A DNA stretch of 64,000 nucleotides from positions 2,206 through 66,205 of the forward strand of contig JACQZG010000007.1 of the NCBI GenBank assembly GCA_016213935.1, given 5' to 3'. The stretch is from Nitrospirota bacterium. Lineage in GTDB: Bacteria > Nitrospirota > Thermodesulfovibrionia > UBA6902. The position numbers were made by a program, and so were the translations under genes. This document shows positions 10,724 through 21,112 of this stretch, piece by piece. The notes below the pieces were generated by a model. It had not been told where the DNA came from. It did no database searches and was given only the letters and a program-made list of their open reading frames with translations. The first letter of the stretch is position 1. Every line of letters starts with the position of its first letter.

Positions 10724-10882
10724 TTATCTGCCGGAGAGCGCGTTAAGAAACTCTTCCCACCATTTCAACTGGGTTTCCATAAAAAGCGGCCTTTCGGGCG
10801 CGGAGAAGTATATAAATGCCATCACCGCGGCGGCCAAAAGGCAGAGTATCGGGAAAATTTCTTTTTTAATATTGTCATTCAT
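10724..10882 (-). CDS. 52-aa single-TM micro-protein, last gene of the GT cluster
   Basis: Manual translation MNDNIKKEIFPILCLLAAAVMAFIYFSAPERPLFMETQLKWWEEFLNALSGR*. ATGA overlap with the upstream stop. Too short for the ORF track. Confidence 0.65.
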   Translation of the reverse strand: MNDNIKKEIFPILCLLAAAVMAFIYFSAPERPLFMETQLKWWEEFLNALSGR

Positions 10883-12876
10883 CTGTTTTCCGCATTAATG
10901 AGCTTCATGATATTGTAATTGCCGTCAGAGTAAACCACTCTGAATTTTTCCCTGGGCCTGCCGAACCATCCTCCGATATTGGCGAGCGCCTTCTTCTCCT
11001 TCTCTATCCATTCATCTTCTTTGGAAGCCTTCCTCAGCAAGACATAAGTGACATTATTCTCTTTAAGGCTTTTAAACCACTCAGCGTACTTTTCAGACTT
11101 TAAATATATTATCTTGTTAGAGAACCGGCTGTTCCAGAGGGGCGAGAGAAACAGGGGCTCAAATGTATAAGCAAGCGTCTCTCCTTCTGAGACATTGTCA
11201 TGTATCCATTTCCATTGGCTGTATTCCTGCTTAGCGTGAAGGTCTATATTAAAAGGCGCGTGCCTCGATATGGTCCGTTCACTCTGAGGCAGTTTCAGGA
11301 ACTCAATTATTTTATCAGGCATCACGCACGGCGAGTTCGCTGTGAGAAAGGTATATGAAACAAGCAGAAGGGCGGTAAGCCTGAGGGCTGAAGCCCTGCT
11401 TCCGAGGCGGTCAAGCACGAAACCGAAAGAGAGCGCCCCAAGCGCCACGATGAATATCACATACCTTGTATTCCAGTTCCTCGGGTGAGCGATAAAGACC
11501 GCGATGAGCAGAGCCGTTATAAAGAGCCAGTCGAATCTTTTTTTAACAATGGAGTAAAAGACGGCATAGGCAAGGCTCGGAAGAAAGAGGATGAACCATA
11601 AAGGGCCAAAGCCGCTCAGCCTTGAATCATAAAGATAATACTCTACCCTCTCCATCCAGACATAAAACAGGCTGATAACAGAAGAGGAGTTTTCTATAAG
11701 AGAAGGGGCAGGGTCTATCATCCCTTTATAAAGCCCCTTGAGGAGCGTCCTGTTAAAGACCGTTATCTCCATGGGATAAACAGGGTTGCCGTAAAGAACG
11801 GCGTTCTTTATGTACCAGTAGCTTCCGAGAAGGAGCATGGGAAGATAGAAATATATGCCATATAAGGCGAGGCTCTTTTTAAGAAGACGCTCTTTCCCCC
11901 GCATCTTCACGGCTTCCTGAACAGCGATGGCAAGCGAGATGATGATGACAAACAATGGCCCTGAGCCTTTTGAGCCGAAGAGGATCCCCGTACTGATGCC
12001 GGCAAGCAGGATGGGAACCTGCCTCTCAAAACCCGGTTCAGGGATTGAGGCAAGGCTCTTGAAACCGCTGTTTTCGTACAGAAGAAAATTTATCGCGGCA
12101 ATCAGAAGGACCGACACCGAGACATCGACATAATTTGTCGTGGATTGAAGAAGTATTATCGGCGTGAAGAAGAAGAGCAGGGATGAATACAGCGCATGCT
12201 TATCGTTTATCCTCAGCTTCACGGCGATGCTGTAGGTTGTGACGATTCCTATTATCGTAAAGGGAAGCTGGCTTAGGTCAGCGATGACATCGCTTTTGAG
12301 GAATATGACGTTCCAGAGGAAGAAGAGCTCCATGTTTTTCGGGAAGATATTTATAAATGTGTCTATCATAAAGTTCGCGGGATTCTCCTGAATAGCGCCG
12401 CTCTGCATTATCTGGCCGACTATCGGCAGATGGTACCAGAGGGCGTCCCACGTATAGGAAGGGAAGAGATAGCCGAGAAAAATAAGCCATGCGGTTTCTG
12501 ACAAAAAGAGGAGGAATATAATAAATAATATAAGGTCTGATTTTATAATTTTGAAAAGCCATGCGATCTTTTCTTTTGCTTCTTTCCATGCCTGCCCAAT
12601 CTGAAGGCCTTTATTTTTCAATGACAAAAATATGAAGACAATGGAGGATATCGAGCTGTTCAATATAAAAAGAGGGGCTGCGTGGAGTTGTTTGAAGATG
12701 ACGCCGAGCACAAGCTCTGTCGCTATTATCTGCGCCAGCGAAAGCATGAATGCCCCGATAAGCCTGTCGGCAAATGAAACAGAAGACCTTTTTCTGAAGA
12801 GGAAGAAGTGCCAGGACAAAGCAAGATAGAGATTTATCGCGGCAGCAAGCGGGAGGTCAATTGGCCTGATTTCCAT
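10879..12876 (-). CDS. Polytopic membrane protein, probable GT-C fold glycosyltransferase (ArnT/PMT-like)
   Basis: Many hydrophobic segments; WDALWYHLP loop after the first TM block; YWYIKNAVLYGNPVYP; RY motif; soluble C-terminal domain. Confidence 0.65.
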   Translation of the reverse strand: MEIRPIDLPLAAAINLYLALSWHFFLFRKRSSVSFADRLIGAFMLSLAQIIATELVLGVIFKQLHAAPLFILNSSISSIVFIFLSLKNKGLQIGQAWKEAKEKIAWLFKIIKSDLILFIIFLLFLSETAWLIFLGYLFPSYTWDALWYHLPIVGQIMQSGAIQENPANFMIDTFINIFPKNMELFFLWNVIFLKSDVIADLSQLPFTIIGIVTTYSIAVKLRINDKHALYSSLLFFFTPIILLQSTTNYVDVSVSVLLIAAINFLLYENSGFKSLASIPEPGFERQVPILLAGISTGILFGSKGSGPLFVIIISLAIAVQEAVKMRGKERLLKKSLALYGIYFYLPMLLLGSYWYIKNAVLYGNPVYPMEITVFNRTLLKGLYKGMIDPAPSLIENSSSVISLFYVWMERVEYYLYDSRLSGFGPLWFILFLPSLAYAVFYSIVKKRFDWLFITALLIAVFIAHPRNWNTRYVIFIVALGALSFGFVLDRLGSRASALRLTALLLVSYTFLTANSPCVMPDKIIEFLKLPQSERTISRHAPFNIDLHAKQEYSQWKWIHDNVSEGETLAYTFEPLFLSPLWNSRFSNKIIYLKSEKYAEWFKSLKENNVTYVLLRKASKEDEWIEKEKKALANIGGWFGRPREKFRVVYSDGNYNIMKLINAENR

Positions 12877-13687: not shown

Positions 13688-14698
13688 TTAATGCATATAC
13701 ACGAATGCGGCTGCGTAAGTAGTGCCTTCACCGGCATTTTTCGTCCTGAACCAGTCAAATCCGGCCACATCCCTGTTGAGAGAGAGGACAAGCTGTGTCT
13801 GCGGGGTAAGCGAGATAGCAAGCCCTACGCCGAGGTTTACCGCCTCCGGTTCAAGCCCGAGGGTGTCTTTTATCAGCTTGCGGTCGCCGTCTTCAGCCGC
13901 GCCTCCGTAATAAGTCATATAGGCATTAAGCAGTTCATCCGACACGTTGGCATTGCCGATCGATTTTGTATACTCAAGGCTTCCTCTCAATTCAACTTTG
14001 GGGTGCAAGGCATAACCTCCGCCGAGGAAGAACTTGATCTGGTCTGAATACCTGAAGTCATAAGATGTTGTCCTGTCAAGGTCCGGATTATTCGGATCCC
14101 AGGCATCTATGCTCCTATTCTCAAACTGATATTTATAGCCGAGGTTGCAGAGCAGATAGCCTTTGCCAATGCCCTTGCCGAACATGAAATCAAGCTTGGC
14201 GCTGTAATGGCCGTCCCCGTTGCTCAGGTGCGAGAGCGGAAACCCGTAGTCGTAGGCCTCGGGTATCGTAAATGTGCTCTGGATAGAGAACTGCGTATCG
14301 CCCAGTTTGAAGAGGTTGGGGGCAAGGTTGTATCTTAAACCGACGTCAATGTCGCCTATGCCGCTCGGCCCTCTTTCGCCCGCGTATTTGAGGGCATCAT
14401 CGGATGTCGGCTGTTTATAGGCAAAAGAGGTAAAAATGGTGAGAGTGTCGATCACGCCGTATTCAGTGTAAAACCCGACGTCTCTTGAACTGAATTTCGA
14501 TGACGGCCTTCTCTCCACCACGTCAGAGCCTTCATTCGCAACAGTTGAATATACATTTTTTGCGAGGTAGTAGCTGTATGTGAGCTGGTTGTATGAATGC
14601 CCTTTTGCCTGTGTCCATGCGGAATATGCGTTGCCGCTTTTGAGCAGGCCTGCCGCAAAAAGAATAAACAATAAAAGGTAAATTCTTTTCATTAACAT
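13688..14698 (-). CDS. Exported protein, probable outer-membrane beta-barrel
   Basis: Signal peptide (..AYS|AW), alternating aromatic strands, GIGDIDVGLRY motif seen in MetA-pathway-like barrels, C-terminal AAAFVYMH. Confidence 0.6.
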   Translation of the reverse strand: MLMKRIYLLLFILFAAGLLKSGNAYSAWTQAKGHSYNQLTYSYYLAKNVYSTVANEGSDVVERRPSSKFSSRDVGFYTEYGVIDTLTIFTSFAYKQPTSDDALKYAGERGPSGIGDIDVGLRYNLAPNLFKLGDTQFSIQSTFTIPEAYDYGFPLSHLSNGDGHYSAKLDFMFGKGIGKGYLLCNLGYKYQFENRSIDAWDPNNPDLDRTTSYDFRYSDQIKFFLGGGYALHPKVELRGSLEYTKSIGNANVSDELLNAYMTYYGGAAEDGDRKLIKDTLGLEPEAVNLGVGLAISLTPQTQLVLSLNRDVAGFDWFRTKNAGEGTTYAAAFVYMH

Positions 14699-16277: not shown

Positions 16278-16402
16278 AAAAATAATTATATGATAAGGAG
16301 TTAGTTGACGGAATTATAACACAGGAAAATTTTTCTTAGCAATCTTTGTTGAATATATATTGCCGGGGATCTCCCTTAAAAAGTTCCGCGATTAAAAAAC
16401 GC

Positions 16403-16431
16403 TTGATTTTTGTATCCGCAGGCAATATAGT
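16403..16431 (+). promoter_or_regulatory. Sigma70-type promoter of arsR with an overlapping palindromic operator candidate
   Basis: TTGATT (16403) - 17 nt - TATAGT (16426), with TTTTTGT-N8-GCAATAT at 16407-16428. The ATG lies 8 nt past the -10 with no RBS, so the mRNA may be leaderless. Confidence 0.55.
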
Positions 16432-16439
16432 TATGGTAT

Positions 16440-16772
16440 ATGGATACTGAAAATATTTCTTATCTGAAATCATCGATCAAATGGACTGCCATTCTCAAAA
16501 CGCTTGCCGACGAAACACGGCTTCAGATAATCCACTGCCTCCTGAAGCAGGAAGCCTCTGTGCAGGATGTGGCAAACTCGCTGAATTTGAAGGTTTATAA
16601 TGTCTCCAAGCACCTTAAGATCCTTGAATCATCCGGCCTGGTTATCAAGAGAAAAGACGGCACACACCGCATTTACAGCATCTCGGAAAGCATAAAGGAC
16701 CACCTCTCCGAAGACAAACAGGTCCTTGACCTCGGCTGCTGCAAGTTCATCTTCTCCGGTTTGAATAAGTAA
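16440..16772 (+). CDS. ArsR/SmtB-family transcriptional regulator with C-terminal Cys-Cys
   Basis: LKTLADETRLQII, VSKHLKILESSGLV winged HTH; LDLGCC at residues 96-101. Confidence 0.92.
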   Translation: MDTENISYLKSSIKWTAILKTLADETRLQIIHCLLKQEASVQDVANSLNLKVYNVSKHLKILESSGLVIKRKDGTHRIYSISESIKDHLSEDKQVLDLGCCKFIFSGLNK

Positions 16773-16829
16773 TCTCTGTTATTTTATAAGGCCGTTTGTC
16801 TTTTACCCCGCGTTCGGCTAAATTAGACT

Positions 16830-19800
16830 ATGGCGCGCGGCAAGAGAAGATACGGCATGCTGATAGACCTTGATAAATGCGTCGGGTGCTACGCGTGCCA
16901 GGCCGCCTGCAAACTTGAGCATGGCATCCCGTTCGGCGTATTCCGCTGCAGGGTGGAGACATACTCCTCGGGCGGATTCCCTGACGTGAGAAAGGTATTT
17001 ATCCCGCGTCTGTGCAATCATTGCGATAATCCCCCGTGCATAAACGCGTGCAGTGAAAAGGCACTCGTAAAGAATCCGGACGGCATCGTCGAATTCAATA
17101 AAGAATTATGCGTCAACTGCGGCCTGTGCTATGAAAAATGTCCTTATAACGCCATTGATACAACCGGCAATGAACCGCAGAAATGTGATTTTTGCAAGGA
17201 GAGGCTCAGGGAAGGCGAGCTTCCAGCGTGCGTTAAAAGCTGCATGGGCAAGGCTATGCTCTTTGGTAACCTGCGTGACACCGGAAGCGGAATATCGGCC
17301 GCTCTCAGGAAAAACCGGCTTTCTGTCATCAGGTCTGAAGAAGAGACAGGGCCTTCTGTATTTTATATTCACAAGGGAGAGATTGAGTTTGCGCCGTTAG
17401 GCCGTTATGAGAAGAAAGAAGAGCCTGCTGCTCACGGCGCTCCATCAAAAAAGACGTCTTTTGAACATACGCCGAGCAAGAAACTCATAAACACCGCTGA
17501 TGTCATGTGCCCTTCCGAATGCGGCATATCGGTAGAAGTCGAAAACGGCATTGCAAAGAAGATTTACGGGAATCCGCATTCTCTCGTCAATAACGGGACG
17601 CTCTGCGCAAAAGGGGCGTCCGGGCTTCAGATGACCTATTCCCCCCACAGGATAAAGACGCCTCTCATGAGAACCGGAGAGAGGGGAGAGGATAGATGGA
17701 AGAGCATATCATGGGACGAGGCATTATCCTGTATTGCCGCGAAACTCGTAAGCATCAAGGAAAGATACGGCCATGAATCGGTCTTTCTCGATGTCGGCGA
17801 TGTTACTGACCGCGAGCCTTTTTACAGATTGTTTCACGCTTTTGGCACTCCCAACACCTTTAACCACGGAAGCATATGCGACCCTAACAGAAAGTGGGGG
17901 CAGTACATCATGCTTGGCGACGAAAGGCCGCTGCCCGACCTCCAGAGGCCCTTCCTCACCCGCGATGAGAATGGCGAGATTGTACTAAGGCAGGGACATG
18001 ACGCGAAGCTTGTGCTGAGCATCGGCTCAAACCCTTTTGTGGCGACAAGGTTCAATTACATGTCAAACGGCATTCCCGGGGCCAAATCGGGGAATGGCTG
18101 TAATTATATCGTCATTGACCCTGCTCACACGAACTCAGCCTCAAAGGCCGATATCTGGTCTCCTATCATTCCCGGCTCGGACGCGGCGCTGCTTGCGGGC
18201 ATACTTCATTACATAATCAAAGAGGATGACCCTTCAGACAAAGACAAAAAATACATTGACCATGAGTTTATTGAGAGATATACGACAGGATGGGATGACT
18301 TCAGGTACGCCTTTCTCCTTCAGGCTGAAAAGTCCGACACTTCCAACGGATACAAATTCTTTACCCCTGAATGGACTGAGGAAAAGACAGGCATAGCAAA
18401 AGAAAAGATGGAGCGCATCGCGCATCTTTCAGGCGTCACAAAACCGATGGCGGTTGAGATAGGGATGCACGGAACGGCTCATCACACGAACGGTGATGTG
18501 ACCTCAATACTGATGTCGGCAATCTGCCTCATAACCGGCAATATTGATGTTCCCGGCGGGGTTGTATTCATAGATTCGCAGAAGGCAAAGAAAGGCATTG
18601 CTGCTACAGGCAAAGCTTTTCTCGAGAGAGAGGTCAAAAGAAAGGTATCGGGCAAAAATGTAAAAGGCAAACTCTCGGAACTGAACAAAGACGGCTACGG
18701 CGATTATCCCGCAGCGTTTAAGGGCGTCCTTGCTGACCTGCCGCGAAAGATACGGGAGGGGGTCAAGCTTAAGCACGGGCCTTTCAAGGGGTATGAATAT
18801 CCCGTAAAGGCTTTTGTGACAAGGGCCGGCAATCCTGTAATAACTGCAGGCAGCGCGCCGGACTGGACAGAAGCGCTCACATTAAAGAGTTCAGACGGCG
18901 AATATAAACTTGAACTCATGGTCTTTATAGACACCCATATCAATGTCACGGGGAAATACGCGGACATCATTTTGCCCCAAGCAGGATATCTCGAAAGGAT
19001 GGGGCTTAGCGATGTATACACGATGAGCCCGGAGATCGCCCTGAGGGAGCAGGTGATAAAACCTCTTTATGAATCAAAGACGGATTTTGAGATTATGACA
19101 GCCTTATCCGAAGCCCTTATTCAAAACGGCGACCCTGATATAAAGAGGGATGACTTCAGCGGAAGGTATGAGAATGAAGAGAGCTTCATAAATGAGATGC
19201 TCGGCGATGCTCCAGGATTTCACAATATAGGAAGCCCGCTTCCGTATCCTGACATACCCGAGGGCGCTCTCATCCTCGGCAGGCCTGACAATCCGAGCGC
19301 CGTATGGGGCAAAAAAGTGATAAAAGAAGGGGCGCCTCTTACCGTGCAGTGGCTGCGGGACAACAACGGCGTGGCGGTATGGCCGGCGGGATATTACAGA
19401 TACAGGAAGGCTGATGGTACTCTGTCCGGGATATATCCGAAGACTCCGTCGAGAAAATTTGAATTCGGGTTCGGATATACCGAAGGCATCAACAGGCGCT
19501 TCAGCACTTCTTTGCCAACGACTTTCTACTGGGCAGAACCTAAATGGAATCCAAAGAATTCAGAGTATTCCGAACTTAATAAGGAATATCCGTTTCAGCT
19601 AATAAGCGGAAGGGTGCACCACTCGATGACAATGACGGCTGTCTGCCCCTATCTCGCTGAGACAGAGACCGAGTGCATGAAACTGATGAATGAGAAGCTT
19701 GATTATCATATCCCCGGCAATGCGGAAGTATCCCCGCTTTTCGGCCTCTCTGGCGGTAAAGATGTATATTTCAAAAAGGGGAGTGTCTCAATACCCGTGC

Positions 19801-20114
19801 TTGCCATCAACAGGGCTGACGGCGAAAGGCTCTCTATAAAGACAGGGGATATGGTAACTCTTCAGAATCCCCTCGGCAGGTCAGGCAAAGGCAGGGTTTA
19901 TTTGCCAGAGGAGATAATGCCGGGGGTTATAAAGACGTCTTTCGGCCCCGGAGGGCAGAAGGCTTCGGGCACAGGCCTTTTAAGCGGCGCCTCAAGCTAT
20001 ACAATAAACATAAATGAATTCACAGACCCTGAAAATATCAGCCCATATACGGGAATGCCCGGTTTCGGAGATATAATGGTAAAAATCATTAAAAGCGGGA
20101 ATGGAGATTCTTGA
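16830..20114 (+). CDS. Fused 4x[4Fe-4S] electron-transfer domain plus DMSO-reductase-family molybdopterin catalytic domain
   Basis: N-terminal CVGCYACQAAC, CNHCDNPPC, CVNCGLCYEKCP, KCDFC..PACVKSC (NrfC/PsrB-like), then DVMCPSEC..LCAKG, RIKTPLMR, ISWDEAL, NHGSICD, YADIILP and a C-terminal molydopterin dinucleotide-binding domain. No twin-arginine signal. Confidence 0.9.
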   Translation: MARGKRRYGMLIDLDKCVGCYACQAACKLEHGIPFGVFRCRVETYSSGGFPDVRKVFIPRLCNHCDNPPCINACSEKALVKNPDGIVEFNKELCVNCGLCYEKCPYNAIDTTGNEPQKCDFCKERLREGELPACVKSCMGKAMLFGNLRDTGSGISAALRKNRLSVIRSEEETGPSVFYIHKGEIEFAPLGRYEKKEEPAAHGAPSKKTSFEHTPSKKLINTADVMCPSECGISVEVENGIAKKIYGNPHSLVNNGTLCAKGASGLQMTYSPHRIKTPLMRTGERGEDRWKSISWDEALSCIAAKLVSIKERYGHESVFLDVGDVTDREPFYRLFHAFGTPNTFNHGSICDPNRKWGQYIMLGDERPLPDLQRPFLTRDENGEIVLRQGHDAKLVLSIGSNPFVATRFNYMSNGIPGAKSGNGCNYIVIDPAHTNSASKADIWSPIIPGSDAALLAGILHYIIKEDDPSDKDKKYIDHEFIERYTTGWDDFRYAFLLQAEKSDTSNGYKFFTPEWTEEKTGIAKEKMERIAHLSGVTKPMAVEIGMHGTAHHTNGDVTSILMSAICLITGNIDVPGGVVFIDSQKAKKGIAATGKAFLEREVKRKVSGKNVKGKLSELNKDGYGDYPAAFKGVLADLPRKIREGVKLKHGPFKGYEYPVKAFVTRAGNPVITAGSAPDWTEALTLKSSDGEYKLELMVFIDTHINVTGKYADIILPQAGYLERMGLSDVYTMSPEIALREQVIKPLYESKTDFEIMTALSEALIQNGDPDIKRDDFSGRYENEESFINEMLGDAPGFHNIGSPLPYPDIPEGALILGRPDNPSAVWGKKVIKEGAPLTVQWLRDNNGVAVWPAGYYRYRKADGTLSGIYPKTPSRKFEFGFGYTEGINRRFSTSLPTTFYWAEPKWNPKNSEYSELNKEYPFQLISGRVHHSMTMTAVCPYLAETETECMKLMNEKLDYHIPGNAEVSPLFGLSGGKDVYFKKGSVSIPVLAINRADGERLSIKTGDMVTLQNPLGRSGKGRVYLPEEIMPGVIKTSFGPGGQKASGTGLLSGASSYTININEFTDPENISPYTGMPGFGDIMVKIIKSGNGDS

Positions 20115-20191: not shown

Positions 20192-20950
20192 TTGATAAAA
20201 TTCATCAATGTCAATAAGTGGTTCAAGGAGCACCAGGTCTTAAAGAACGTCAACCTCGAGATATCCAAGGGCGAAGTCGTAGTTATATGCGGCCCGAGCG
20301 GCGCAGGCAAGAGCACCCTCCTCAGAACAATCAATAAGCTTGAGCCGATACAGAAAGGTGATATCGTCATCGAGGGAGCCCATCTTTCCGACAATACCAT
20401 TAACATAACATCAATGAGGGCTGACATAGGCATGGTCTTTCAGCAGTTCAATCTCTACCCGCACATGTCGGTAATCAAAAACATCATGCTCGCGCCCGTG
20501 AAGGTGAGGAAGATAAGCAAGAAGGAGGCACATGACAGGGCGATGCGCCTGCTTGAGAAGGTAGGGCTCGCGCATAAGCGCGACTGCTATCCCAACCAGC
20601 TCTCAGGCGGAGAGCAGCAGAGGGTCGCCATAGCGAGGAGCCTCGCGATGGAGCCGAAGATAATGCTTTTTGACGAGCCGACCTCCGCGCTCGACCCGGA
20701 ACTCATTAACGAGGTGCTGGATGTCATGATATCGCTTGCCGACGAGGGCATGACCATGGTGGTCGTCAGCCATGAGATGGCCTTTGCACAGCAGGTTGCG
20801 AACAGGGTTGTCTTTATGGACAACGGCGAGATTATCGAGATAGGCGTTCCCCCTAATATCTTCATCGATCCACAGCATGAAAGGACAAAGGCGTTCATGA
20901 GCAACGTCCTTCATATGCCCGTTTTCTGCTATAACGAAGAGAGGAAATAA
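20192..20950 (+). CDS. Polar amino-acid ABC transporter ATPase (GlnQ/TcyC-like), orphan
   Basis: [43 protein letters not shown]. No permease or binding protein adjacent. Confidence 0.92.

Positions 20951-21035: not shown

Positions 21036-21112
<77 letters not shown>

Follow-up and report, generated by a model that had tools for sequence, protein, structure and literature searches.

A fused Fe-S/molybdopterin oxidoreductase of groundwater Nitrospirota and its proposed link to an amino-acid-type ABC importer

The window analysed here, a 64,000-nt stretch of DNA from the Nitrospirota bacterium assembly GCA_016213935.1 (contig JACQZG010000007.1, positions 2,206-66,205 of the forward strand), contains a gene (16830..20114, + strand) for a 1094-aa oxidoreductase in which an iron-sulfur (Fe-S) module and a molybdenum- or tungsten-bis(pyranopterin guanine dinucleotide) (Mo/W-bisPGD) catalytic module form a single polypeptide, as seen from Pfam, homologues, metagenome contigs and a structural model. 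This fused gene is real and widely conserved in groundwater Nitrospirota. On balance, and with some reserve, we favour the reading that it encodes an ArsR-controlled cytoplasmic reductase that acts as the redox partner of an amino-acid-type ATP-binding cassette (ABC) importer, and that it descended from the B and A genes of an enzyme exported by the twin-arginine translocation (Tat) system.

The fused enzyme and its distribution

A first-pass annotation of this DNA had proposed that one 1094-aa open reading frame (ORF) carries the Fe-S module ahead of the catalytic module, the order of a B and then an A subunit (B-A), and the ORF, the Pfam domains and the cysteine groups agree on this arrangement. 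Read directly from the translation, residues 17-138 (16878..17243, +) hold four [4Fe-4S]-type cysteine groups (C17/20/23/27, C62/65/70/74, C94/97/100/104 and C119/122/134/138) that make up a PsrB/NrfC-like module, with the Pfam domain Fer4_11 at residues 55-147. All 16 of these cysteines are invariant in an alignment of 27 family members, and the module is 38% identical to the separate B subunit of a Tat-exported sister family described below. The catalytic part comprises Molybdop_Fe4S4 (PF04879; residues 226-271, 42 bits), the molybdopterin oxidoreductase domain (PF00384; 17649..19112, +, residues 274-761, 124.9 bits, E 4.9e-36) and the dinucleotide-binding domain Molydop_binding (PF01568; 19794..20069, +, residues 989-1080, 35.2 bits), each over its cut-off; on these predicted domains the protein is a member of the Mo/W-bisPGD (dimethyl sulfoxide (DMSO) reductase) superfamily. 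Between the two modules lies a linker of low pLDDT (17400..17492, +, residues ~191-221), variable in the 27-member alignment, at the place where the lost Tat signal of an A subunit would be. An AlphaFold2 model built on 128 diverse alignment rows (mean pLDDT 95.6, pTM 0.95), which replaced an earlier model on 27 close homologues (mean pLDDT 55.1), is uncertain only in blocks 201-220 (pLDDT 60-80), and since confidence is high everywhere but in the linker, the Fe-S and Mo modules are predicted to pack as one body.

An assembly or gene-calling artefact that joined two genes might be suspected in a metagenome-type assembly of 62 contigs (2.2 Mb, 96.4% complete), but we give this explanation practically no credence. 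The first-pass annotation had called for read support over the junction at 17380-17500, and Logan contigs from three groundwater metagenome runs now cross it without indels (X1, 16300-18697; X2, 16599-19634; X4, 17369-17639), all four runs belonging to one study that possibly includes the source sample. It had also suggested a hunt for the fusion elsewhere. Among the best 119 homologues, which come from many sources and are 58-73% identical to the window protein, 114 carry the same fusion: 101 are B-A fusions whose first cluster motif lies at or before residue 69 (median 16), and 13, of about 1360 aa, have an ABC permease at the N-terminus (permease-B-A), the other five being shorter and lacking the first cluster motif. 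In a search of 1.84 billion representatives, the whole fused family forms one 50% cluster (P0072). Across 201 sampled genomes of the phylum, with the host genome as G000, the fused form occurs in two (this one and G146) and the Tat-type form in eight, and no genome has both; a related-locus search of genome contigs returned seven loci, one of which (L006) holds a true family member. The sources label the relatives that bear homologues Nitrospirae or Thermodesulfovibrionia. In the literature searched, with supplements outside the search, no B-A fused or permease-tethered molybdoenzyme is described, the matches being periplasmic or unfused Psr enzymes.

At the FS0 site of the catalytic module (D224-x2-C227-x3-C231...C259; 17499..17606, +), alignments place an aspartate where the first cysteine usually stands. 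This position (Asp224, window 17499-17501) is Asp in 114 of the 119 homologues and Cys in four, and Asp recurs in the Tat-type sister P0123, with Cys in the next outgroup rows; the pattern points to an Asp-ligated or three-iron FS0 cluster as a trait of the clade, [4Fe-4S]/Asp and [3Fe-4S] being alike compatible with it. The probable Mo/W ligand, by alignment, is Cys350 (17877..17879, +) within the motif HGSICDPNRKWG, which is present in 115 of the 119 homologues. Cys350 is invariant in the 27-member alignment and aligns with the corresponding cysteine in ArrA (6cz7_A) and in two proteins that pass the PhsA cut-off, a cysteine that we take to be the metal ligand in ArrA and PsrA. The first-pass annotation had matched the segment NHGSICD to the H-x-S-x-C region of ArrA, and HMMER agrees, setting 'fnhgsicd' of the fused enzyme against 'ISHSSVCA' of 6cz7_A.

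Its claim that the enzyme lacks a Tat signal also stands, since a first cluster motif that begins at residue 17, close to the median of the B-A homologues, leaves no place for such a signal. Neither an NrfD anchor gene nor a TorD chaperone gene was found in a scan of 16 neighbouring ORFs, as that annotation had said. PF02613 (the TorD/NarJ family) had no match anywhere in the host genome (96.4% complete), whose two NrfD genes lie on other contigs (C2 and C3).

Association with a polar-amino-acid-type ABC importer

The first-pass annotation regarded the enzyme as self-contained, and here it has to be revised: the next gene encodes an ABC ATPase, 13 of the 119 homologues are fused to a permease, and a full importer is present at all nine loci of one subgroup (type B, below). 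In the window, the ATPase gene (20192..20950, +; 252 aa, PF00005) starts 77 nt downstream of the enzyme gene on the same strand; its product scores 335 bits against the GlnQ model (cut-off 379) and 298.9 bits against TcyN (cut-off 406), and it is an ATPase of the GlnQ/TcyN/EhuA type. Where a homologue is fused to a permease, the permease spans residues 20-225, the Fe-S module 255-445 and the Mo module the part from 480 onwards, and the permease fused in frame is permease 2 of the importer.

We compared 59 metagenome loci together with L006, L013 and the window, clustering their 703 ORFs and annotating representatives, and distinguished type A (at least 57% identical, n=43) from type B (47-50% identical, n=9). 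Of the 43 type-A loci, 12 have one or more ABC parts no further than four genes from the enzyme gene, and where at least two genes are visible on each side (14 type-A loci), ArsR is present at nine and a rhodanese and an ABC part at five each. The type-B order is the same at 9/9 loci: binding protein, enzyme, an ATPase of 501 aa that ends in an SBP_bac_3 domain, and then two permeases. At the closest metagenome locus, L023, the same ATPase gene is followed by two permease genes whose products score over the TIGR01726 cut-off; they stand at the place taken here by a tRNA-Met (CAT) gene directly after the ATPase gene (window 21036-21112, from an Rfam scan of the window that found tRNA only and no riboswitch), and the importer operon therefore seems to have been broken here beside the tRNA gene. 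The binding protein (SBP_bac_3) and two PF00528 permeases of this genome are encoded on another contig, C44, and are 60%, 33% and 60% identical to the corresponding parts at the loci; the same queries found no second binding-protein/permease set in the genome. At one further locus, the gene next after the enzyme gene encodes a sensor kinase with a periplasmic SBP_bac_3 domain (L067:2405-4579).

Permease 2, the fused form included, keeps an EAA-type coupling loop, which we take to be the ATPase-coupling loop of ABC permeases. In type A only, it also has a conserved cytoplasmic tail (G..D..S..P....R.[DE]L.L.P), in fused and unfused copies alike and in that of this genome. A complex prediction for enzyme residues 1-950 with this 41-residue tail gave no answer (score 0.00) and counts neither way. 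The binding protein aligns best with AncQR (143 bits), then with a Thermus amino-acid binder, GlnH and LAO, and keeps an Arg and an Asp that align with what are presumably the alpha-carboxylate and alpha-amino contacts of amino-acid binders. On these sequence comparisons the importer is of the polar-amino-acid (PAAT) type, its parts being present though the ATPase stays under the GlnQ equivalog cut-off. We considered a tungstate/molybdate transporter and rejected it, the permeases and ATPase matching the GlnPQ/TcyLN/Ehu families and not Mod/Tup/Wtp.

Several further observations concern the surroundings of these genes. Molybdenum cofactor (Moco) genes occur at type-B loci, and in this genome moaA (L090 8676-9695, -) lies on C44, convergent and right behind the binding-protein and permease genes. 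The type-B ATPase (L054:9997-11502; also L055-L063 and L070) is 501-502 aa long, and Pfam finds no domain between its ATPase and SBP_bac_3 parts; if no transmembrane segment separates them, the SBP_bac_3 domain would be cytoplasmic and perhaps hands substrate to the enzyme or regulates it. Type-B flanks (L056, L057, L059, L061 and L070) consist of long same-strand clusters with MobA, MobB, MoeA, MoaC and a Mod-like ABC system, and also with a fused electron-transfer flavoprotein, a PNPOx-like protein, a pair of nitrogenase-component-1-like genes, a homocitrate-synthase-like gene, aconitase-family subunits, a class-III aminotransferase, a radical SAM protein, DHDPS and an AMP-ligase. This cluster may represent an amino-acid-derivative pathway together with a candidate electron donor. 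A NusG-like paralogue of 172-175 aa is found near the enzyme or importer genes in both subgroups (L033:2657-3175, L054:5041-5568 and L061:16811-17338).

Sister family, regulator and substrate clues

Beyond the P0072 cluster, the next match is P0123, a 948-aa protein of 44% identity with a twin-arginine signal, and such Tat-type relatives are 44-48% identical over the catalytic module. In a tree made by a quick method from 45 hand-picked rows of the homologue lists and five type-B loci, type A, type B and P0123 group in a single clade (SH-aLRT 100), with no resolved branching order among the three, and two proteins over the PhsA cut-off (P0142 and P0164) and one ArrA-like protein fall into other, distant clades; the deeper nodes are unsure because of the quick method and several long branches. 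The first-pass annotation had proposed placing the enzyme among PhsA, ArrA and their kin. Rows of both kinds could be set beside it, but they proved distant, and the nearest relatives are instead a Tat-exported, ACR3-linked family.

Loci of this sister family run from a PhnD-like binding protein, a histidine kinase and a sigma-54 regulator through an ACR3-like transporter to B (221 aa), A (with Tat signal) and a TorD/NarJ-like chaperone, which tatA/tatC look-alikes (judged by eye) follow. The ACR3-like transporter stands beside the sister enzyme in all three loci examined: that of G114 exceeds the TIGR00832 ACR3 cut-off (301.3 vs 282.8), the G175 protein shares 92% identity with it over 226 aa, and the G013 protein is a relative at 29%. 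From its likeness to the anrXSRBAD operon of Geobacter sp. SVR, the sister family is probably the Anr-type antimonate system. The fused and Tat-type families share the Asp-for-Cys FS0 site, the H-G-S-I-C-D..R-R/K motif and the B-then-A gene order. The Tat-type A subunit, however, carries a twin-arginine signal (MQVSRRVFLKYAG...), with B separate and a TorD/NarJ-type chaperone gene next to it, whereas the fused enzyme is a signal-less single chain partnered with an ABC importer in a genome where no TorD-family gene was found; anrXSRBAD likewise has a Tat-exported A, a separate B and a TorD-like D.

The sensor trio of PhnD-like protein, kinase and sigma-54 regulator is also encoded in this genome, not beside the enzyme gene as in anrXSRBAD but on C44, directly upstream of the binding-protein and permease genes, and its members share 45/46/58% identity with those found next to the Tat-type enzyme in G013. 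Strong orthologues of the PhnD-like component (E <=1e-80) were found in 10 of the 201 genomes, of which eight carry one or the other enzyme form; in seven of the eight genomes with the Tat-type enzyme, 4-10 kb separate the orthologue from the enzyme gene. These positions suggest that one kind of sensor acts for the periplasmic enzyme in some genomes and for the importer here. The PhnD-like component matches PtxB, a phosphonate binder, at 81.7 bits, ArrX at 65.8 and AioX at 38; binding proteins of the AioX/ArxX/ArrX type are described, in PMC5908839, as sensing arsenite or arsenate for Aio, Arx and Arr.

Immediately before the enzyme gene lies a gene for an ArsR/SmtB-family repressor (16440..16772, +; 110 aa), which scores over the cut-offs of NF033788 (76.8 bits, cut-off 55) and PF01022 (42.4 bits) and has the vicinal cysteines C99-C100 near its C-terminus (VLDLGCCKF), just as the first-pass annotation read it. 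An ArsR gene lies within four genes of the enzyme gene at 17 of the 43 type-A loci, and the ArsR cluster occurs in 19 loci overall, with arsR immediately before the enzyme gene; the Cys-Cys motif is kept in 18 of the 19 orthologues, and C33 is not conserved. The residues aligned to the 'CVC' of CadC/ArsR read 'SVQ', which leaves no cysteine at the classical site, and none of the three-Cys As(III) sites (type 1, 2 or 3, as defined in PMC11868830) was found in the protein, in which C99-C100 is the only conserved pair. According to PMC11868830, the type-2 regulator AfArsR binds As(III) via Cys95, Cys96 and Cys102 at its C-terminal helices, and the two-Cys SpArsR, which lacks the third cysteine, responds to methylarsenite only. 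Our regulator broadly resembles type-2 ArsR in that two adjacent cysteines sit towards the end of an ArsR/SmtB fold, the match to 6j05 spanning residues 15-82 only; it differs in lacking a third cysteine and in having a molybdoenzyme, not an efflux pump or ArsC, as its target. Such a pair might just as well respond to sulfane sulfur or to oxidants. A persulfide sensor of the BigR/SqrR type was rejected (NF040642, 39.5 bits vs 155), its N-terminal Cys33 not being conserved.

Just upstream of arsR, a consensus scan marks a promoter-like site (TTGATT-17-TATAGT; 16403..16431, +), weak on its own in that shuffling predicts just as many such sites; several related loci have a comparable CTTGATTTT...ATATAGT/ATATATT stretch ahead of arsR (by eye, uncounted). 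An operator search gave one weak 11-nt inverted repeat over the promoter, and by eye no palindrome common to the 19 arsR upstream regions was seen. Further upstream in the window, two ORFs of 665 aa (10879-12876, -) and 336 aa (13688-14698, -) have no Pfam or NCBIfam match; both (clusters c8 and c6) recur upstream of arsR in L023, together with a tetratricopeptide-repeat protein and a family-2 glycosyltransferase, and c6 recurs in L026, L027, L029 and L039. The fused gene also has housekeeping neighbours (rpsB, tsf, pyrH, frr, gap, pgk and smpB): rpsB-tsf-pyrH-frr surround the enzyme gene here, in L006 and in L046, and pheA-aroA-cmk at other loci.

The first-pass annotation suspected an uncharacterised family, and the enzyme indeed reaches no NCBIfam equivalog cut-off: the best model, PhsA (NF012032), gives 255.7 bits against a cut-off of 694, ArrA (NF041714) 148.5 against 1600 and TtrB 169.1 against 416. 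Psr and Phs enzymes are periplasmic, of three subunits, and anchored by an NrfD-type quinol oxidase. PsrABC/PhsABC (Thermus, PDB 2VPW) is comparable in superfamily and in subunit logic (2vpw_B 137.9 bits, 2vpw_A 115.1 bits), but within the 16 neighbouring ORFs the Tat signal, separate B subunit and NrfD anchor expected of a PhsA/PsrA operon are all lacking, and PhsA-labelled rows sit in a distant clade of the tree. ArrAB (Shewanella sp. ANA-3, PDB 6CZ7) is the best Foldseek match of the model (6cz7_A, E 9e-41), although PsrA 2vpw_A has the higher TM-score on target (0.81 vs 0.75); the H-x-S-x-C...K segment aligns with ArrA, and the ArsR-type regulator and the sensor trio of the wider fused system give it an arsenic-style context like that of ArrAB. 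ArrAB is nonetheless periplasmic, has two subunits and is represented by a row far off in the tree, and the stretch aligned to its 'RGRY', presumably a motif with a functional role, reads 'VGDVTD' in the fused enzyme. Cytoplasmic, unfused polysulfide reductases of the PsrA2B2 type have been proposed in Campylobacterota, according to an extract of PMC10045233; they are Psr-like enzymes without a Tat signal, as here, but their subunits are separate, and that extract reports no permease fusion, ABC coupling or ArsR.

Further clues to the substrate come from neighbouring genes. A small rhodanese (116-150 aa) is encoded in 13 of the 43 type-A loci, divergent between arsR and the enzyme gene (L026:9432-9884, -, and 12 more loci), and a 60%-identical orthologue is present in this genome on contig C51 (G000 L091:5903-6340). 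It has a C-x4-C loop, Y-C-K-H-x-x-C-x-A-S-K-K, whose second cysteine sits where, we assume, sulfurtransferases have Arg; its best NCBIfam matches, all weak, are rhodanese-related selenoprotein families. A rhodanese partner also recurs in psr operons (PMC12142623). At one locus a TauE/SafE-family transporter gene lies between arsR and the rhodanese gene (L050:5861-6607), another single locus has a cysteinyl-tRNA synthetase (CysRS) fusion that we count among the sulfur clues, and DsrA scores over its cut-off in the host genome, with DsrB adjoining. A search of the 703 ORFs at the fused family's loci yielded no ACR3. The canonical ACR3 of this genome (453 bits) lies elsewhere (L115 1432-3005, contig C19), outside any ars operon; next after it comes a 170-aa ORF resembling a P-loop kinase (by eye), with a ComEC-like gene adjoining.

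Proposed import-coupled reduction and its alternatives

In the system that we favour, some cytoplasmic donor would supply electrons to the four [4Fe-4S] clusters of residues 1-190, from which they would pass through the Asp/Cys3 FS0 cluster to the Cys350-ligated Mo/W centre. The tree and gene order suggest that adjacent B and A genes of the Tat-exported family fused and that the export signal was lost in the process. The importer would bring in a compound that has both an alpha-amino-acid handle and a reducible group, reduction would follow at the membrane's inner face, and ArsR would free the arsR-enzyme-ATPase operon once its Cys-Cys pair binds a soft, thiophilic species, the candidate inducers being trivalent As or Sb, an organo-arsenical and sulfane sulfur. 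An amino acid bearing an S-S(O3) or an As(V)/Sb(V) group would reconcile the sulfur, pnictogen and amino-acid clues. As to the substrate, an organosulfur compound with an S-S bond (S-sulfocysteine or cystine polysulfides) is a tentative candidate and a pnictogen(V) species an equally tentative one, with what is left after these two shares falling to other compounds.

Several points weigh against this reading. No adjacent ABC part is found in 31 of the 43 type-A loci, many of them on short contigs, nor in nine of the 14 type-A loci with at least two genes on each side, and the importer genes of this genome are divided between two contigs. As only a single set of this kind turned up in the genome, the importer may simply be this organism's general transporter for polar amino acids. 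The substrate clues themselves conflict, sulfur (rhodanese, one TauE, DsrAB) standing against pnictogen (the ArsR Cys pair, the ACR3-linked sister family), and the search of the fused family's own loci gave no ACR3.

The ABC genes would be incidental if the protein were a soluble cytoplasmic reductase of inorganic polysulfide or thiosulfate, fed by the rhodanese. PhsA is after all its best NCBIfam model, the rhodanese recurs at type-A loci with a copy in this genome, DsrA/DsrB are present, one locus has a TauE/SafE gene, and the Campylobacterota proposal offers a precedent for a cytoplasmic PsrAB (PMC10045233). The PhsA score is, however, far below its cut-off, the rows that pass it belong to a distant clade, and the in-frame permease fusions and the nine out of nine type-B operons speak for the importer as part of the system, so that we consider this explanation rather unlikely. 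We rate no higher a cytoplasmic As(V)/Sb(V) reductase, a Mo-dependent analogue of ArsC induced by its product via ArsR, for which the importer would be unrelated or an oxyanion carrier. In its favour are the conserved vicinal Cys pair of ArsR, with a two-Cys relative that responds to methylarsenite (PMC11868830), the ACR3-like transporters beside the sister clade in 3/3 loci, a sister-family trio of the AioX/ArxX/ArrX kind (best matches PtxB and ArrX; PMC5908839) and ArrA as the top Foldseek match. The ArrA model score is nevertheless a small part of its cut-off, the 'RGRY' position is altered, PsrA fits the fold equally well, the binding protein resembles a binder of alpha-amino acids, and ACR3 is missing from the family's loci and lies elsewhere in this genome.

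Less probable still, to our minds, is that the permease serves as a membrane anchor only, or that the ABC neighbourhood is mere synteny, with no import-coupled catalysis. Most type-A loci do lack adjacent ABC genes, and the enzyme gene often sits among housekeeping genes. The fused permease has nonetheless retained its ATPase-coupling loop, binding-protein and ATPase genes accompany the enzyme in two subgroups with a mutual identity of 47-50%, and the ATPase gene is still beside the enzyme gene here although the permease genes are elsewhere.

The cytoplasmic reductase partnered with an importer can also be imagined in a stronger form, which we offer as a speculative proposal with a low chance of being right: an 'import-and-reduce' machine, in which the permease of a type-I ABC importer is docked or fused to the Mo/W reductase and the reducible group carried by the amino acid undergoes reduction on leaving the pore. 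Its boldest version would have a pentavalent organo-pnictogen amino acid (an arsonate or arsinate) as substrate, with the two-Cys ArsR sensing the trivalent product, a fit that follows from such a product needing just two thiols. In an alternative version, S-sulfocysteine or cystine polysulfides would be reduced and the resulting sulfite or sulfide fed to Dsr.

Members of the DMSO reductase superfamily that respire S, As, Sb and Se compounds are periplasmic, Tat-exported, multi-subunit complexes. The fused family inverts that plan, being one cytoplasmic chain with genetic ties to an ABC importer, ties that are also physical in 13 of 119 homologues, which suggests that substrates are pulled inward and then reduced inside, like sulfate in these sulfite-reducing Nitrospirota. 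Such coupling, if true, would be a new way to link transport with redox chemistry, and would hint that in anoxic groundwater and sediments an electron acceptor, organic or metalloid, or a sulfur source has so far gone unrecognised; the ACR3-linked, probably antimonate-reducing sister family offers concrete substrate candidates. The 'import-and-reduce' machine, if it exists, would be the first transporter-tethered member of the superfamily; with an organo-pnictogen substrate it would also be the first enzyme to reduce compounds of that kind in the cytoplasm, and a version of it that acts on S-sulfocysteine or cystine polysulfides would be almost equally novel.

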